From assembly GCA_037379345.1 (NCBI GenBank), contig CM074511.1, positions 62,130,862 through 62,194,861 of the forward strand: DNA of 64,000 nt. The letters are read 5' to 3'. A program made the position numbers and the translations under genes. This stretch comes from Perna viridis (taxonomy: Eukaryota). Positions 1,142-60,156 of the stretch are shown here, one piece after another. Under the pieces are notes generated by a model. The model did not search any database and was not told the DNA's origin. It saw nothing but the letters and a program-made list of their open reading frames with translations. Numbering within the stretch: the first letter of the stretch is position 1; every line of letters starts with the position of its first letter.

Positions 1142-3220
1142 GAGTAATCAAGGGAACCAAGGTTATAGCTGTAATCAAAAGAATGCAATCCAGGGACAAA
1201 GACCAGACATGGAAAACAGACATACACAACAAAGAACATTAAGTAACTAAAATATTACATACGAAGTAGATAAAGCAAATGAGCAACTTGGACTCCACTA
1301 AAAACTGGCTCATAAAAAGTCAATTCCGGGGTAGACAAACGAGGAAAGGAAAACTTATGACCCGTTGAATAAATCAGTTTTCATGATACACCATAAGTCC
1401 ACGAGTTCATGATGACGACCATAAAACTTCTGCAGTGATGACTTCAATCCTGTAGCAACATAACTCTGTTCCAGAAGCCTATTTGTTAGAGTTCTAGCGC
1501 GATACAAAAAGTCTGCGTAGTTTCGGCAAGCTCTGGCATAACGTATGAGTTGTGATATGAACACTCCATACCCAGGTGCTGAAGGGATCTTGCCACAGAT
1601 GAAAGAAAAGTTGACAATTTTGAATGAAAAGTCATCACGTTTGTCGTAAAGTTTGGTCAGTAGTTTTCCTTTACCATCGATTGCTAAGTGTAGGTCAAGA
1701 TATGAGGCTGACTTCACAGTGTCTGTAGTATCCTTTATCTCAAGTTCTTTGGGGTAGATGCCATGCATCAAATCCCCGAAATTAGGATTGTTTAAAGATA
1801 ATACGTCATCTATATAGCGGAAACTGAGATTAAAGGATCTAGCCAAACGATATTCTTTCGGATCAGATCAGCTATAAAGTCAGCCTCATAAGAGTGAAGG
1901 AATAGATCAACAAGTAAAGGAGCACAATTTTTTCCCATTGGAATGCCGACCGTTTGTTGAAAAACATGTCCACCACACTGGACAAATATGTTGTCGATGA
2001 AAATTCTAGCATTTTGTAAACATCTTCCTCTGTATATTTGGAAGATGATTTGGAATTATTTCTTACAAAGTATGAGGAATCTCTACCAAGAACTATATAT
2101 TTGTCTCTAGGTGTACCATCTTTTTTGGAAAAAAAACAACGATGAATAATGTTTTTTAAGTCGGGATTTTAACTGAGTATGGGGAATAGAAATATGCAGT
2201 GTTGAAAAATCATAGGTTTTGATGCTAGTGTATTCTGATAATAGTCTTGAACTGATTGTCTTCAAAAGATCTTTCGAATTTTTCAGGATCCACATTGAAT
2301 TAATACCACTACGGGAGTAACAAGTATTGTGGTAGGTCTGCAGACCCTCTTTGACAGTTGTGAGTATAGAAGTTAAAAGTTTTGATAGAGGTTTGCTGGT
2401 ACATTTTGCAGATCCAGCTATGAAACGTTGTTTGTATGGATTTTTGTGGAGTTTAGGAATCCAGTACATTGACGGTAAATCACAATCATCGTCCTTGGTA
2501 GAGGGACCAAAAGAGGATTTATGGTTTTCCACAATCTTTTCTTTGGAGAGTGTGGTAGCAGTATAGGTCTTGTCACTGCTATTATTTTCTACGTCTACCT
2601 TTGATAATAAACACTGGACGTAAAACGTTTTGCAGACAAAAACAACGTTGTTTTGGGCTTTGTCTGCTGGTACGACAACATATTTGTCATGTATAGTAGA
2701 CAATGTTTTTGCTACATCTGTGTCTTTGAAAACCGATGTAGCCTTGGCACTCATTGACCTACTTAAAACTTTCATTCGTTTCAAAATCACGGCCTTTAAC
2801 TACTCTGACAGAGAATCAATGTCTTCTTCTCGTTTTATCCATTTTCGTGCATAGTCCTCGACGGCATCCATAAGAACTTTGAAGTTATAATTCCAATTTA
2901 TGGAGCGTGGTTCACGGTACTTGGGACCTTTAGAAAAGATATTACGCAGAGATTCGTTTTCGATGATGGTTAAATCTCCTGTAATGACGTGACCAGAAGG
3001 ACCATATTTGATTGATTTTTGGGGTTTAACGTCCGAGCAGCAATATTTTAGCTATATTCAGACGAGACCATATTTGAATGGAGAGTTTTTGCAAGAACAG
3101 TCAGGTGGTTTAGCCTTGAAGTCCTCAATCTCGAGGTTCTGCAATAGCCTTTTATAATTGAACATTTTTGATGCAATGGGTGAAGTATAGGAATATGAAA
3201 TAATTGGTATGGATTTGTCT
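1142..3220 (-). mobile_element. Penelope-like retroelement (Naiad-type: CxC linker then C-terminal RT), 5'-truncated and frameshifted
   Basis: ORF pieces 3058-3255, 2107-2790 and 1355-1846 join into PPDCSC...GHVITGDL, VVVPADKA, YWIPKLHK, TYDFSTL, GIPMGKNCAP, FRYIDD, YDKRDDF. The ORF ends without a C-terminal GIY-YIG domain. The 3' UTR ends ...CCCTTGATTACTC. Flanked by a 7-bp direct repeat GTTGAAG (1135-1141, 3221-3227). Confidence 0.85.
3012..3065 (-). mobile_element. 54-bp 3' tail of the non-tRNA SINE family, nested in the PLE
   Basis: Matches the tail of the 46958-47476 element. 12-bp TSD GACCATATTTGA at 3000-3011 and 3066-3077. Confidence 0.85.
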
Positions 3221-4843: not shown

Positions 4844-5290
4844 ACTACAGAAGTTTTATGGTCGTCATCATGAACTCGTGGATCGTTACGGTGTATCCAT
4901 CTGCATGAAAACTGATTTGTTCAATGATTGATTGATTATTGGGGTTTAACGCCCGAGCAGCAATATTTCAGCTATATTCAGGCGGTGAACATGAAAGGGA
5001 TGACGTGTCATAGTTTTCCTTTCCTCTTTCGTCTACCCCGGACTTTAGTTTTTATTAGCAACTCGGTGGATGTCTCTAGAAAAGCAGAGAACGTTTATCC
5101 TACCGGTGCACCTGGTCCATGCTCCCAGTTTTTGGTGGAGTCCAAGTTGTTCATTTACTTTCGTTAGTTTGTATGTATTATTTTAGTTTCTTCATGTTCT
5201 TTGTTGTGTTTGTCTGTTTTCCATGTCTGGTCTTTGTCCCTGGATTACATTCTTTCGATTTCCGCTAGCTCTTGGTTCTCTTGATTACTC
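4844..5290 (+). mobile_element. Naiad-type PLE 3' fragment with a nested SINE tail (4925-5003)
   Basis: Encodes LQKFYGRHHELVDRYGVSIC followed by the same 3' UTR as 46739-47931. Interrupted by (ATTG)n-GGGGTTTAACG..., with no clear TSD. Confidence 0.85.
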
Positions 5291-6911: not shown

Positions 6912-6957
6912 GATTGATTGATTGATTATTGGGGTTTAACGCCCGAACAGCAGTATT
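6912..6957 (-). mobile_element. SINE tail remnant
   Basis: (GATT)n ATTGGGGTTTAACGCCCGAACAGCAGTATT matches the insert at 4925-5003. Confidence 0.7.
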
Positions 6958-15681: not shown

Positions 15682-18048
15682 GTGTAAACATGTTTTATTT
15701 AGAAATTCAAACAATAGTATAATAACATAAGTACAATGTAAGGAAAGGATTCGGAAACAAGCTTTAAGCTTTTATAAATCCGTTTCCTAGGTAATTAAAT
15801 GACAAATATGTATAAATAGTGCATGCTCGTACTCTAATAATATTTACGAACAATTGAATAAAATATGATGAAAACTTAGGTTTTTGGTATACAATATGAA
15901 ATTGAAAATGAAGATGAAAAAGAGAGGGAAAATGACTTGTGGGCAAAAGTACAGTGAATGTTAGTTTTAAAATATACAAAACAGTCAAGTAAATCTCTTA
16001 CTTTTGATAATATACAACTGAGTAAAGTTAAAAAATGGCAATGTTTTGATCATCATTCAGTTGGTTAGATCCAAAGATTAGAAGATTTGTATTGATTTCA
16101 ACAGGGATTTCAGCTAGCGAGGCTAGAAGTTCAGTTCTTAGAGTTCGATATTTTGGACAGTGGAATAAAAAGTGTTTAGTGGTTTCAATTTCGCCACAAG
16201 TACAAGTAGATGAATTGTCAAGATTAAAAAAAAAATAAATGGGAATTAAGGGCGCTAGAATTTAATCGCAGTCGTGAATATAGTATTTGTCCTAACCTTG
16301 TACCAGTATAATAGTAAGCTGGTACTTTATCATTTTGACTACGCGCTTAAAGATTGCAGTAGAATCTACTGCCTTGACATTTACATCTAATTCGTTCCAC
16401 AGTTTTACTGTTGAAGGTAAAAAATAGTCTGCGTAAATATTAGTGCGAGTAAAAATGTTAGCGATATTATTTGCTTGTCTATTGTTATGATTGTGGCGAT
16501 TTGCAATTGTACCAGGGACAAGATCTGATAGGTAATTGGGTGTTTTGTTATTTAACATTTTATGGAAAAGAAAAAGTTTATGAGTTTTACGTCTGGAAGC
16601 CAAAGTTTCCCATTTAGTTTCTTCATAAAGTTTTTGTAAAGTAGTAAGCCTTGTCCCACCAGTTACAATTCTTCCTGCATCGATTTGAACATTTTCTAAC
16701 TTATCTATCAAAGTTTGATTTTGAGTATCCCAAATGGCATTGGCATATTCTAAAATGGGTCGAATGAAAGACATATATAACTTTTCCAAAGTAAATCTAT
16801 CAAGAATCATTCTACATTAATTTTCCTTAGAACATTTAATCGGTTATACGCTATTTTGATAATGTAATCGGTATGATCATGCCAAGAGCCGTTGTTCGAA
16901 ATCATTAGACCAAGATGCTTATGATTGTCTACAGACTGAATAGGCCGATTATTCAAATATAACGTGGGGTGAACAGGTTTATTGTTTTTCCGAGAAATAG
17001 TAATAGTCTCTGTTTTTCTGGCGTTGAAGTTAACTAACCATTGTTTAAACCATTTATGAATTTTAACTAAGTCGTCATTAAGTATGGAAGCTGTGTCGTT
17101 AGGGGAATCGACTACCAGGAAGTATGGAGGCTATGTCGTTAGGGGAATCGACTACCAGGAAGTATGGAGGCTGTGTCGTTAGGGGAATCGACTACCAGGA
17201 AGTATGGGGGCTGTGTCGTTAGGGGAATCGACTACCAGGAAGTATGGAGGCTGTGTCGTTAGGGGAATCGACTACCAGGAAGTATGGGGGCTGTGTCGTT
17301 AGGGGAATCGACTACCAGGAAGTATGGGGGCTGTGTCGTTAGGGGAATCGACTACCAGGAAGTATGGGGGCTGTGTCGTTAGGGGAATCGACTACCAGGA
17401 AGTATGGAGGCTGTGTCGTTAGGGGAATCGACTATGAGGAAGAGACTGGTATCATCCTCAAAATAATCTGATGTTTGCTTTTATATCAGTTACTATACCA
17501 TTGATAAATAAGATAAATAACAGGTGACCAAGAATAGAACCCTGAGAAACTCCAGCACCAATGGGTAACCATTCCGAAGAAGAACCATTTACGACTACCC
17601 TTTGAGACCTTCCCTCTAGATAATTTTTAAACCAATTTAAAAGATTATCCTCAATTCCAGCCTGTTTTAATTTAAATAAACCCTTATGCCAGACCCTGTC
17701 GAAAGCTTTGCTAATATCTCAGAAGATCACTTTAATTTCTTTGCCGCTGTCCAATGCTGCGAATTGATTGACCACGGAGTCTCCTTTAGTAAAACCCGAT
17801 TGTATATTATTATGATATTCTCAAGTAAATGATTATGTACATGTTTATAAACACAGCCTCCATGACCTTAGATATTACACATAAGAGTGAAATAGGACGA
17901 TAATTTTAACATCATTGGAATTATTACTTTTAAATATGGGGGTTACATTAGCCCTTTTCTATTTGTTAGGATATACTGCATTTTCTAGTGGTAAATTAAA
18001 GAGTCTACACAGTGGATAGTTTAAGATTCAAGCTGATACTTTAAGCAT
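15682..18048 (-). mobile_element. CR1/L2-group LINE, 5'-truncated RT pseudogene
   Basis: Motifs RANVTPIFK, NYRPISLL, ISKAFDRVWHKGL, GVSQGSILG, IRLFEDDTSL, HKHLGL, LYMSFIRPILEYA and C-terminal CTCGEIETTKHFLFHC. AATAAA near the 3' end. Possible TSD GTG(T/C)ATTA at 15674-15681 and 18049-18056. Confidence 0.88.
17081..17440. repeat. 40-bp minisatellite x9 inside the LINE RT
   Basis: AGGGGAATCG recurs at 17101, 17141 ... 17421. Confidence 0.97.
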
Positions 18049-35900: not shown

Positions 35901-36079
35901 CTTTTGTTCCCATCTTTTTGTAGATCACTAATAACATTGGGAAAATGTTTGGTTTGAGAATCTGTTATCCAAGCTACTGAGCGGTTTGAATTTCATTTGT
36001 TTTCAACGTTCCAGTTTGTTTCTCGGCTGATCTACAATTCTTAATGAATCTTATAACATAGGCAGTTACTTTCAACAGC

Positions 36080-36226
36080 AATCAAACTTTGTCGACCCCA
36101 TTGTCCTTATGTCCCATCCCTTTTTCATTTCATCATCATTTCATGTTCATTTTATCATCAATTTCATGCTCATCGTCTGAATATAGCTGAAATATTGCTG
36201 CTCGGACGTTAAACCCCAACAAACAA
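36080..36226 (+). mobile_element. 5'-truncated non-tRNA SINE nested in BEL
   Basis: Matches the 3' third of the 46958-47476 element. Probable TSD TCAAC(A/G)GC at 36072-36079 and 36227-36234. Confidence 0.85.
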
Positions 36227-36332
36227 TCAACGGCTTTTTAAACGAATCAAATCTGTTAATATCAATGGTCTTAGAGAGTCCTTGTTTATCCGTGTTATCC
36301 GTCGTCATTGTACACGTGTATGTATTGATACA

Positions 36333-40226: not shown

Positions 40227-40872
40227 CTGTGATCCTTTCCACAAAAAATCGTAAGTGTAAAATTAATCGTAAGTTATGACGTCATAGTAAATAAAAGTAT
40301 TGTGACGTCATAACTTACGACTAATTTGACTCTTACGATTTTTTGTGAAAATGTTTGTTTGTTGGGGTTTAACGTCTGAGCAGCAATACTTCAGCTATAT
40401 TCAGACAATGAACATAAAATGGATGATAAAATGAACATGAAATGATAAAAAAAAGGATGGGTCACAAGGATAATAGGGTCGACAAATTTTGATTGCCACT
40501 GGAAAAAGGGGGATGGGTAAGGTCGGGCAATTTAGCCTCCTGTGGCGGAGCGCAAAGGTTCCTACTCCTATCGAATACCACAGCAGGGTTCTTTAACGTG
40601 CGAGGAACGTGGCATCTTTCCCAACACGGTGCACCACTATGGTTTGCGGTCAGGTTTTCCGTATTATAGCCAGACAACCCCAGCATGCAACATGCCAGGG
40701 GTACCCCATTCCACCACCTGGGGCACACATCCCAGTTGCTCTGTGGACAGAGCGCCTAGCCCCCGGCTAGGTTTCTGAGCACTATTTAGTCGCCTTTTAC
40801 AACAAGCTTAGCGCTGCTGCAGGCCTATTCTTTTAACACCCGGACCTGCACGGGGCTTGAAAAGGACTACAG
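40227..40872. mobile_element. ~135-bp foldback MITE split by a SINE insertion
   Basis: Arm 40227-40288 is the reverse complement of 40299-40351 plus 40864-40872, with a few mismatches. Confidence 0.8.
40352..40857 (-). mobile_element. Full-length non-tRNA SINE-like element, copy B
   Basis: Roughly 90% identical to 46958-47476, with a (CAAA)n tail. TSD TGAAAA at 40346-40351 and 40858-40863. Confidence 0.9.
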
Positions 40873-46738: not shown

Positions 46739-47931
46739 AAGTCAGCCTCATATCTTGACCTACACTTAGAAATCGATGGTAAAAGAAAACTATAGACCAA
46801 ACTTTACAACAAACGTGATGACTTTTTATTCAGAATTGTAAACTTCCCTTTCATCTGTGGCAACATCCCTTCGGCTCCTGCGTATGGAGTGTTCATATCA
46901 CAACTCATACATTATGCAAGAGCTTGCCGAAACTACGCAGACTTTTTGTATCGCGCTTGTTTGTTTGTTTGTTGGGGTTTAACGTCCGAGCAGCAATATT
47001 TCAGCTATATTCAGACGATGAACATGAAATTGATGATAAAATGAACATGAAATGATGATGAAATGAAACAGGGAAGGGACACAAGGACAATGAGGTCGAC
47101 AAATTTTGATTGCCACTGGAAATAGGGACAGGTGGGTAGGGTCGGGCAATTTAGCCTCCTGTGGCGGAGGCCTATGGTTCCTACTCCGGGAGAATACCAC
47201 AGTAAGGTTCTTTAACGTGCGAGGAACGTGGCATCTTTCCCAACACGGTGCACCACTATGGTTTGCGGTCAGGTTTTCCGTATTATAGCCTGACAACCCC
47301 AGCATGTAACACGCCAGAGGTATCCCATTCAACCATCTGGGGCACACATCCCAGTTGCTCTGTGGACAAAGCGCCCTAGCCCCCTGCTAGGGTTCTGAGC
47401 ACCATTTAGTCGCCTTTTACAACAAGCTTAGCGCTGCTGCAGGCCTATTCTTTTAACACCCGGACCTGCACGGGGATTGTATCGCGCTAGACGCGCTAGA
47501 ACTCTAACAAATAGGCTTCTGGAACAGGGTTATGTTGCAACAAGATTGATGTCATCACTACAGAAATTTTATGGTCGTCATCATGAACTCGTGGATCGTA
47601 ATGGTGTATCCATCAGCACCATGAAAACTGATTTATTCAACGGGTCATGGTTTTCCTTTCCTCGTTTGTCTACCCCGGACTTGACTTTTTATGAACAACT
47701 CGGCGGGTGTTTCTAGAAAAGCAGAGGACGCTTACCCTACCGGTGCACCTGGTCCATGCTCCCAGTTTTTGGTGGAGTCCGAGTTGCTCATTTACTTTTG
47801 TTACTTTGTATGTATGATTTTAGTTATTTTATGTTCTTTGTTGTTGTGTATGTCTGTTTTCCATGTCTGGTCTTTGTCCCTGGATTACATTCTTTTGATT
47901 ACCGCTATAACCTTGGTTCCCTTGATTACTC
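46739..47931 (+). mobile_element. Naiad-type PLE 3' portion (RT thumb and intact 3' UTR), split by a SINE
   Basis: KSASYLDLHLEIDG...ACRNYADFLYRA | RTLTNRLLEQGY...MKTDLFNGS, collinear with the reverse complement of 1142-1715. Confidence 0.9.
46958..47476 (-). mobile_element. Full-length non-tRNA SINE-like element, copy A (519 bp)
   Basis: Perfect 12-bp TSD TTGTATCGCGCT (46946-46957, 47477-47488), (CAAA)n tail, no credible ORF. Confidence 0.92.
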
Positions 47932-59085: not shown

Positions 59086-60156
59086 GTTGTTGCAATTATA
59101 TCCATACTTTTCATCGTTCTCTCAACAATTGCCTTAACTCTTAACACAATGCCACAAATGCAGATGAAAGGAGGAAAAGACAACGAACAGTTAGACATTG
59201 TAGAGGCAGTATGCATTGGATGGTTCACACTTGAGTATTTAGCCAGATTTTGGGCATCGCCAAATAAATGGAAATTTTTCAAAGGACCACTAAATATAAT
59301 TGATCTTCTTGCAATTATGCCATACTTTATTAGCTTAGGTTTAACCGAAACAAATAAGAATACCACTGAACAATTTCATAATGTACGAAGAGTTGTGCAA
59401 ATATTTAGGATAATGCGAATTTTGCGAATTTTAAAACTAGCAAGGCACTCGACAGGATTACAGTCTTTAGGATATACATTACAAAGAAGTTACAAAGAAC
59501 TAGGATTATTGTTAATGTTCTTAGCTATTTCTGTTTTACTATTTTCTAGTTTAGCTTATTTTGCCGAAAAAGATGTACATAAAACAAAATTCATCAGTAT
59601 TCCCGAAACATTCTGGTGGGCAGCGATCACCATGACGACTGTTGGATACGGTGATATATATCCCACAACGGTTCCGGGAAGGATAGTAGGCTCTGTATGT
59701 TGCGTTTGTGGTGTTTTAGTCATTGCCCTACCAATTCCAATCATAGTTAACAACTTCGCAGAATTCTACAAGGATCAAATGAGGCGAGAAAAAGCGCTCA
59801 AAAGACGTGATGCACTAGAGCGTGCAAAAAGAACAGGAAGTATAGTTTCATTTCATTCTATAAACCTGCGCGATGCATTCGCCAGGAGCGTTGATCTTTT
59901 GGAGGTCAGCATTAATGGTAATAGACAAAACCAAAGACGGGACAGTTGTGATGGATTTAGTGACGATGGGAAAGGGTCGGGTTCTCCTTGCGTTACCAAA
60001 TCTAGCACTGCAACACTAAAAGCTAGAACCGAAAGCTGTGATACTAAAAGTCTTCCTGGAACTCAAAAACATGGTACCTCTAATGTAGCAGAAACTGATG
60101 ACGATTGTCCCAATAGAATGACGTCATCACAACCAGTACTGAACACCAACCAACAG
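59086..60156 (+). CDS. Shab: Kv2/Shab channel, S1-S6 and proximal C-terminus exon
   Basis: S4 [21 protein letters not shown], pore TMTTVGYGD and Kv2-type S6 [11 protein letters not shown]. Donor CAG|GTAGGT at 60157. Confidence 0.96.

Follow-up and report, generated by a model that had tools for sequence, protein, structure and literature searches.

LP-SINEs are retroposons of gastropods and bivalves, the first ~70 bp of which match the LINEs Nimb-17_LMi, I-3_DR and RTE-9_CPB (Matetovici et al. 2016, PMC4758252). In that study the head was proposed to act as a LINE promoter, a proposal that was not tested there, and the parallel with Pr77 was noted. The function of the head was left open, and the main text of the paper contains neither the word 'pseudoknot' nor any link to viruses. 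A second group of described systems, the exoribonuclease-resistant RNAs (xrRNAs), was discovered in viral 3' UTRs, where these RNAs often stand in series; most of them depend on a pseudoknot, they form a ring of 15-16 nt, and one of them, coremin, is conserved in sequence (PMC8374639). The same 2021 review described xrRNAs from viruses only and asked whether eukaryotic genomes have them. With regard to the nuclease itself, Xrn1 holds 5-6 nt between its surface and its active site, and class 2 xrRNAs halt it within a helix when the junction is still 5-6 nt ahead (PMC5760640).

The element described here lies in the window, i.e. the whole stretch of 64,000 nt of Perna viridis DNA that was analysed. 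Its type has already been published (LP-SINE), while the fold of its head and the occurrence of this fold in viruses were not found in print, the literature covered being open-access papers. Spellings of the core sequence gave no paper in this open-access literature, and no natural retroposon xrRNA could be recognized there by title or by the start of the abstract. The main text of a 2026 preprint on ~150 new ribozyme classes contains no core, Nimb or pseudoknot, although its supplements could hold the motif. Both the published element type and the sharing of the RNA with viruses had been missed in an earlier note on this DNA, which had proposed a SINE-like element with a pseudoknotted, possibly catalytic head.

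Retroposon copies and their LINE relatives

Copy A (46958-47476, minus strand), as delimited by its target site duplication (TSD) and an empty site, is a full-length, non-autonomous retroposon of 519 nt, which is too short for a reverse transcriptase, and its 3' end consists of (AAAC)n. The TSD measures 12 nt, with its 5' copy at 47477-47488 and its 3' copy at 46946-46957 (both minus strand). The insertion interrupts another repeat, the uninterrupted counterpart of which is found at ~1471-1530 of the window, and more empty sites were represented by reads and contigs skipping 540 nt. Immediately upstream of the TSD an additional duplication of 9 nt (47489-47497) was observed, which is absent from the empty site and perhaps arose by slippage during insertion. 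The window also contains a second full-length copy, copy B (40352-40856, minus strand), a 5'-truncated copy corresponding to the last 153 nt (36078-36230, plus strand, 95% identity) and a tail-only fragment (4925-5003, minus strand) with comparable fragments at 3007-3065 and 6915-6957. In the 723-Mb genome of P. viridis, 2056 first-look candidates for the head were obtained, 40 of which were scored. Copy A is one among thousands of TSD-flanked retroposon copies with a fixed 5' end and with no tRNA or Rfam match. Other features of the window include an inverted repeat of 54 nt (40236-40351, 89% complementary) adjoining the 3' end of copy B, tandem arrays with a 27-nt unit (from 9407) and a 40-nt unit (17040-17479), and a match to the Rfam potassium-channel RNA editing signal (59641-59754, plus strand, 80.9 bits), which is likely a Kv channel exon.

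The two full copies had been described earlier as starting at the same point and as identical over the first ~70 nt, with about 10% difference in other parts. Identity was found over positions 2-73, and the copies are 90.7% identical overall, but copy B starts at 40856 and not at 40857, with G as its first base where copy A has T; the only differences within the first 100 nt are at positions 1, 74, 85 and 92. As an argument the identity of the two heads did not hold. Among eight full copies that were not chosen by their head (six from LINE-selected loci and the two window copies) the head diverged by 4.9%, no lower than the tail (4.0%) or one body segment (4.4%).

ARAGORN predicted no tRNA over the element, and a search against Rfam, both at the gathering threshold and at E<=10, gave nothing relevant over it (one chance snoRNA match, E 6.8). 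An exact Pol III B box is absent from the element, the single match with one mismatch being located in the tail. These results speak against an origin from tRNA, 5S or 7SL RNA, and the view that the head is of non-tRNA type was supported. Judged by its Nimb-17-like head, variable TSDs, 3' short tandem repeats and lack of a protein of its own, the element is of the LP-SINE type. In the scallop copies of Fig. S2 of PMC4758252, the region marked 'Nimb-17 homology' has, by eye, the same core hairpin and the same layout of P1 and pseudoknot as described below.

The same head was found to start an intact I/Nimb-like LINE with two ORFs and with APE, RT and RNase H domains (L491, G002:C4), a stretch of animal-type DNA within a symbiont assembly, and to stand in truncated form ahead of LINE ORFs in a further assembly (L492, G001:C493). 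The proposal of a LINE-derived head was supported. At its other end, the element carries an I/Nimb-like LINE tail ending in (AAAC)n (46958-47012, minus strand), which aligned with the 3' end of L491 with a score of 33 that was reached in none of 1000 shuffles. Since L491, although from another animal, carries this head together with a similar tail, both parts can come from one LINE clade, and the tail need not have been borrowed from another LINE, as had been supposed. The link to RTE elements made in the earlier note held for one LINE, RTE-9_CPB, but the other two LINEs recorded with this head are listed as members of the Nimb clade (PMC4758252).

For P. viridis itself, 10 of 12 stretches with I/Nimb-like LINEs share one 5' start, with a head different from that of the SINE, and the covariance model of the SINE head gave no match in the four such LINEs tested. 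The tail match of this family was weaker, 2 of 1000 shuffles scoring as high. These results refer to a survey in which 131 of 960 candidates were scored and which did not reach beyond the family closest to the query. Among the matches listed for sixty P. viridis loci that contain the core pattern, this SINE family was the only one seen, and there was no autonomous carrier. The P. viridis LINE (L513-L524, with an ORF2 of 1247 aa) has a different conserved head in its first ~60 nt, in which a C/G-rich stem of 7 bp and a pairing of its loop with 8 nt of a strand further downstream are possible; it is a possible second H-type pseudoknot at a LINE 5' end. This head recalls the RTE 5' UTR domain that was reportedly described by Kojima in 2018.

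Structure, covariation and 5' end of the head RNA

The structured head (47398-47476, minus strand), as defined by covariation, consists of a pseudoknot domain followed by a stem, an internal loop and a hairpin; the covariance model matched it at 47397-47476 with 76.5 bits, by construction. In the P1 hairpin (47459-47474), recognized from the sequence and from pair counts, 47474-47471 pair with 47462-47459 and enclose a loop of 8 nt (47470-47463), which is the 5' strand of the pseudoknot. It is able to pair over 8 nt on the minus strand with 47445-47438, the 3' strand of the pseudoknot stem. Between the two strands a linker of variable length is closed by the invariant AGAAU(A) (47446-47451), which is predicted to pack against P1. 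According to the fold, the P3 stem, the internal loop, a near-invariant P4 hairpin with a loop of 7 nt and a UAA follow at 47398-47435, with the core at 47424-47406. The hairpin at 47374-47392, which had been pointed out in the earlier note, is family-specific and located outside the conserved motif, and it was not seen downstream of the motif in other families. The nested fold of the head alone did not exceed chance (z -0.64), with a folding program that cannot fold pseudoknots.

Homologues were collected with a core-pattern search of metagenomes, which gave at least 122 stretches. For the alignment of the pseudoknot, 129 hits with enough flank were grouped into 42 clusters, and 13 of these could be parsed with a strict anchor independent of the pseudoknot pairing. 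Of the 29 unparsed clusters, many of them decayed or with a long linker, 15 lacked the P1 anchor and 14 lacked AGAAU. In the 13 families 80 of 91 pseudoknot pairs are preserved, compared to 52.8 +/- 4.9 in shuffled alignments, and none of 20000 shuffles was as good. When the six viral rows were taken alone, 41 of 42 pairs were kept, a value matched by one of 720 permutations. When 12 non-viral rows were picked by hand and aligned, 86.6% of the cells were paired, compared to 30-51% in slid controls; 17 cells are changed on both sides compared to 6.2 after shuffling, and such two-sided changes are found in five of the seven pseudoknot pairs, related rows inflating shuffle tests of this kind. P3 was supported less strongly than the pseudoknot (score 53 against 40.3 +/- 4.2 shuffled, 20 of 5000 shuffles as high), and three of the four P4 pairs never vary, partly because the homologues were found via this pattern.

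The linker from P1 to AGAAU measures 4-156 nt in 51 parsed copies, and the 12 copies in which it exceeds 40 nt keep a mean of 5.3 of 7 pseudoknot pairs. Inserts of 50-156 nt in the linker, with the pairing largely kept, were seen in SINE families on six metagenome contigs (L194, L196, L175, L206, L183 and L139). On the evidence of covariation between families, the H-type pseudoknot of the head is real. The strings CCCG and CGGG and the loop pairing, from which it had first been proposed, are present on the minus strand of copy A where they had been placed, as are all other strings given for the head in the earlier note, and the covariation analysis then suggested for the head homologues came out in favour of the pseudoknot. 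In an animal-type contig (L169:1368-1520), two different heads were observed in direct tandem.

The 5' end of the element is uniform. In 46 P. viridis copies, which were found without a copy A query, conservation sets in 6 nt before the U of the loop, with random sequence upstream, and the first base is G in 33 of them. The same onset, 6 nt before the loop U, was found in two metagenome SINE families with 24 and 18 copies, respectively, so that the uniform 5' end first noticed in the two window copies is common to three families. A TSD of at least 8 nt could be identified for 43 of 63 full copies, and 40 of these 43 TSDs end 5-7 nt before the loop U, within 1 nt of the onset of conservation. 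The scallop copies in the 2016 supplement of PMC4758252 start, by eye, at most 5 nt before the loop U.

In one raw RNA-seq run, reads of the element favour one strand by 1.5-2.0 to 1, whereas the flanking repeat favours the other strand, and 390 reads extend past the 5' end into mixed flanks. At 97% likeness the sense excess over the head is 3- to 8-fold, where the assignment of strands assumes the usual stranded protocol. At this likeness 96 reads cross the 5' boundary at a depth of ~125 sense and ~45 antisense reads, which indicates that many sense RNAs are uncut at the boundary. Read-through RNA across the 5' end exists, and this speaks weakly against efficient self-cleavage. A pile-up of read ends at the 5' boundary was not seen in this run, in which random-primed reads make for a weak test, and the run gives no positive support for a trimmed element RNA.

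Occurrence of the motif in viral contigs

Among nine viral stretches found with the core pattern, seven showed the full architecture of the motif, in addition to one loop variant. The motif-bearing viral sequences represent six lineages of small contigs and one DNA-virus contig of 212 kb. Five of the small lineages could be assigned an RNA-virus RdRp or capsid based on Pfam domains (RdRP_4, RdRP_3 three times, and A21 capsid), and the examined part of the ORF of L249 matched nothing in Pfam or PDB. The motif stands in sense orientation behind the last ORF in each of the six small lineages, at 4, 9, 22, 72, 99 and 201 nt past the stop codon and at 79-185 nt from the contig end. The probability of this 3' placement by chance was crudely estimated at 3e-10. 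Two of the six lineages carry tandem copies: in L249 the second copy is cut by the contig end and shows one compensatory change, and in L467 a diverged second copy lies upstream. In the 212-kb DNA-virus contig, a lone full motif (L251:2955-3028) is situated between two genes, 119 nt after a stop codon.

A covariance model built without the viral rows scored all eight viral motifs at 38.9-71 bits, compared to 15 bits or less in other controls, the score partly reflecting the pattern that was used to find them. Two phage-like contigs with the hairpin and no pseudoknot scored 26 bits and were excluded from the viral count. In a loose control scan of 96 viral stretches, a fully paired P4 was present in only two contigs, both with the pseudoknot, and 120 more viral stretches taken as a control gave no new case. 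When 80 of 120 further loci were scanned with the model, the four that reached at least 38.9 bits were all already known and the remainder scored 22.8 bits or less. A search with the hairpin loop left free covered 32 viral stretches, and in none of the complete motifs among them did the loop differ by more than one base. A phage collection gave short chance matches only.

Nine hits in prokaryote genomes are not taken as an occurrence in bacteria, since those examined lie in DNA of animal type, namely in LINE ORFs, in simple repeats or at the end of a chimeric contig. Such animal-type LINE/SINE DNA inside prokaryote assemblies was observed in L491, L492, G005 and L476:1-575, and G005 shows 66 RT matches, many of them in frames of more than 1000 aa. 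As the sense motif lies behind the last ORF in the viral contigs, the shared motif evidently acts as RNA; a DNA promoter would presumably be useless in RNA-virus genomes.

Possible roles of the head RNA and comparison with known systems

The reading that we favour, at a probability of roughly 0.45, is that the head RNA is a block to 5'-to-3' exoribonucleases (Xrn1/Xrn2 type) of a class not in Rfam. It would then represent a new class of exoribonuclease-resistant RNA, a module that moves among animal LINEs and SINEs, RNA viruses and a large DNA virus. The retroposon 5' end would be set by stalling of the nuclease, as a third route beside internal promoters and ribozymes. A host read-through transcript containing an element copy would be decapped or cut upstream and then degraded 5' to 3', until the nuclease stalls at the pseudoknot junction with ~6 nt inside it. 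The protected RNA would begin at the first base of the element with no need of a promoter or ribozyme, and could be copied from the shared tail by the reverse transcriptase of a Nimb-type LINE. A stable 3' subgenomic RNA would result from this fold in viruses, so that a single activity would explain both this RNA and the uniform 5' end of the retroposons. The near-invariant hairpin may serve to complete the brace or as a binding site for a protein. The start at 6 nt before the loop fits a block of this kind because of the 5-6 nt held by Xrn1 between surface and active site (PMC5760640).

Two traits of xrRNAs are present in the motif, namely a pseudoknot conserved by covariation and a site in a viral 3' UTR or intergenic region (six of six small lineages behind the last ORF, two of them in tandem, and one intergenic site in a DNA virus). 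The covarying structure of the head contains no three-way junction as in xrRNA classes 1 and 2, and no match to the coremin hairpin with a YGAD/YGNNAD loop and spacer was found in the head. The motif fits no described xrRNA class. Since the linker after P1 reaches 156 nt, it cannot be the ring of 15-16 nt, which would have to sit elsewhere. The ~20 invariant bases of the core would be more usual in a catalytic or a protein-binding RNA and count against an exonuclease block, although the xrRNA coremin is conserved in sequence too. The position of the viral motifs also counts against it, only three of six being within 22 nt of the stop codon. Tandem copies are known for ribozyme heads too (SIDER2, PMC4035085; totivirus ribozyme pairs, PMC13725137), and a purine as first base (G in 33 of 46 copies) agrees as well with a start of transcription or a cut made by a ribozyme.

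Such a cut is the basis of the explanation ranked second, which we hold to be rather doubtful: a self-cleaving ribozyme of a new class would cut just 5' of P1, in the manner of the HDV-like ribozymes of R2 and L1Tc, and so free the element from read-through RNA. The uniform 5' end and the ~20 invariant bases around the pseudoknot and internal loop agree with this, and there is precedent for cleavage just upstream of such a domain at LINE 5' ends (PMC4035085, PMC5786205) and for ribozymes in the UTRs of toti- and tombus-like viruses (PMC13725137); a comparison with Pr77 was drawn by the 2016 authors (PMC4758252). Nevertheless, no known ribozyme could be recognized. A simple descriptor of the HDV-like core gave 0 hits in the head with 40 nt of flank, and HDV-like ribozymes gave no Rfam match. 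Neither did hammerhead, twister, pistol and hatchet, the short core patterns of which are absent from the head, with the sole exception of one loose pistol-like pattern that starts in unique flank. No weight was given to a possible likeness with the pistol linker or with small-subunit rRNA. The Rfam search with the head that had been suggested earlier gave no ribozyme match at the gathering threshold or at E<=10.

The viral motifs also argue against a ribozyme, since the base at -6 in the small viral lineages is T, C, A, C, A and C and the viral P1 has just 3-5 bp, so that a constant geometry of cleavage cannot be seen. Single-stranded RNA genomes cut at this place would presumably lose their 3' terminus, whereas known viral ribozymes are mostly located in 5' UTRs (PMC13725137). 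Sense reads of the element cross the boundary, though old copies may be inactive. The ribozyme proposal of the earlier note was not supported for the known classes, but a new class is conceivable; it ranks behind the exonuclease block because the motif lies upstream of the RNA-virus 3' terminus and because sense reads run through the 5' end.

An unlikely alternative is that the head binds a host protein or the ribosome and serves as a cap-independent translation enhancer or replication signal, and that the 5' end is set in another way. The head would be a 3' cis-element in viruses, an aid to translation in LINEs and a means of placing the RNA near the LINE protein in SINEs. The near-invariant stem and loop of the hairpin are consistent with such binding, three viral motifs lie 72-201 nt past the stop codon, all at most 185 nt from the contig end, and 3' translation enhancers are described for Tombusviridae (PMC10520033). 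This explanation does not account for the start of three families exactly 6 nt before the loop, and the motif is also present between genes of a large DNA virus. A binding platform and an exonuclease block could coexist. An internal DNA promoter taken over from a LINE, as proposed for LP-SINEs (PMC4758252, section 10, where it is untested), with an incidental fold, is very improbable, for although the location of the head at the start of LINEs and SINEs, the purine first base and the 3- to 8-fold sense excess over the head among near-identical reads agree with it, the motif occurs in viruses with RNA-dependent RNA polymerases, shows compensatory changes and keeps its pairing across inserts of more than 40 nt (mean 5.3 of 7 pairs, 12 copies). 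A dual role as promoter and RNA is possible, as in Pr77 (PMC4035085).

Should the exonuclease block or the ribozyme be true, the head would be a new RNA class common to retroposons and RNA viruses. This would explain how SINEs are made with no Pol III head, and why only 70 nt were swapped between LINE clades. Thousands of such modules in host transcripts could affect RNA decay.

Compared to the described systems, the element resembles the LP-SINEs in its ~70-nt LINE-derived head in place of a tRNA head, its TSDs, its tandem-repeat end and its length, which is ~520 bp in the published families; its body could not be matched to any family in PMC4758252, five words from body and tail being uninformative. 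Like the Pr77/L1TcRz heads of L1Tc, NARTc, RIME and SIDER and the HDV-like heads of R2, it has a pseudoknotted module of 70-80 nt at the exact 5' end, which is common to LINEs that differ elsewhere and to short derivatives and sometimes stands in tandem (PMC4035085). In contrast to these, the head has no HDV-like P1/P3/P1.1 arrangement, and no LINE found in the P. viridis genome would yield the element by a simple internal deletion. With the ribozymes in the UTRs of linear RNA viruses it shares the distribution of one motif class over retrotransposons and toti- and tombus-like viruses, but those are hammerhead, HDV-like and twister ribozymes, mostly in 5' UTRs (PMC13725137), while this motif is none of them and is located behind the last ORF. 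The viral xrRNAs (flavivirus classes 1a, 1b and 2, the Tombusviridae/Luteoviridae class and coremin) agree with it in the viral 3' UTR site, the tandem copies, the pseudoknot and a 5' end 5-6 nt before the junction (PMC8374639, PMC5760640, PMC10520033). The motif differs from them by an H-type pseudoknot combined with a separate conserved hairpin, a structure predicted from sequence, and by its presence in animal retroposons as well.
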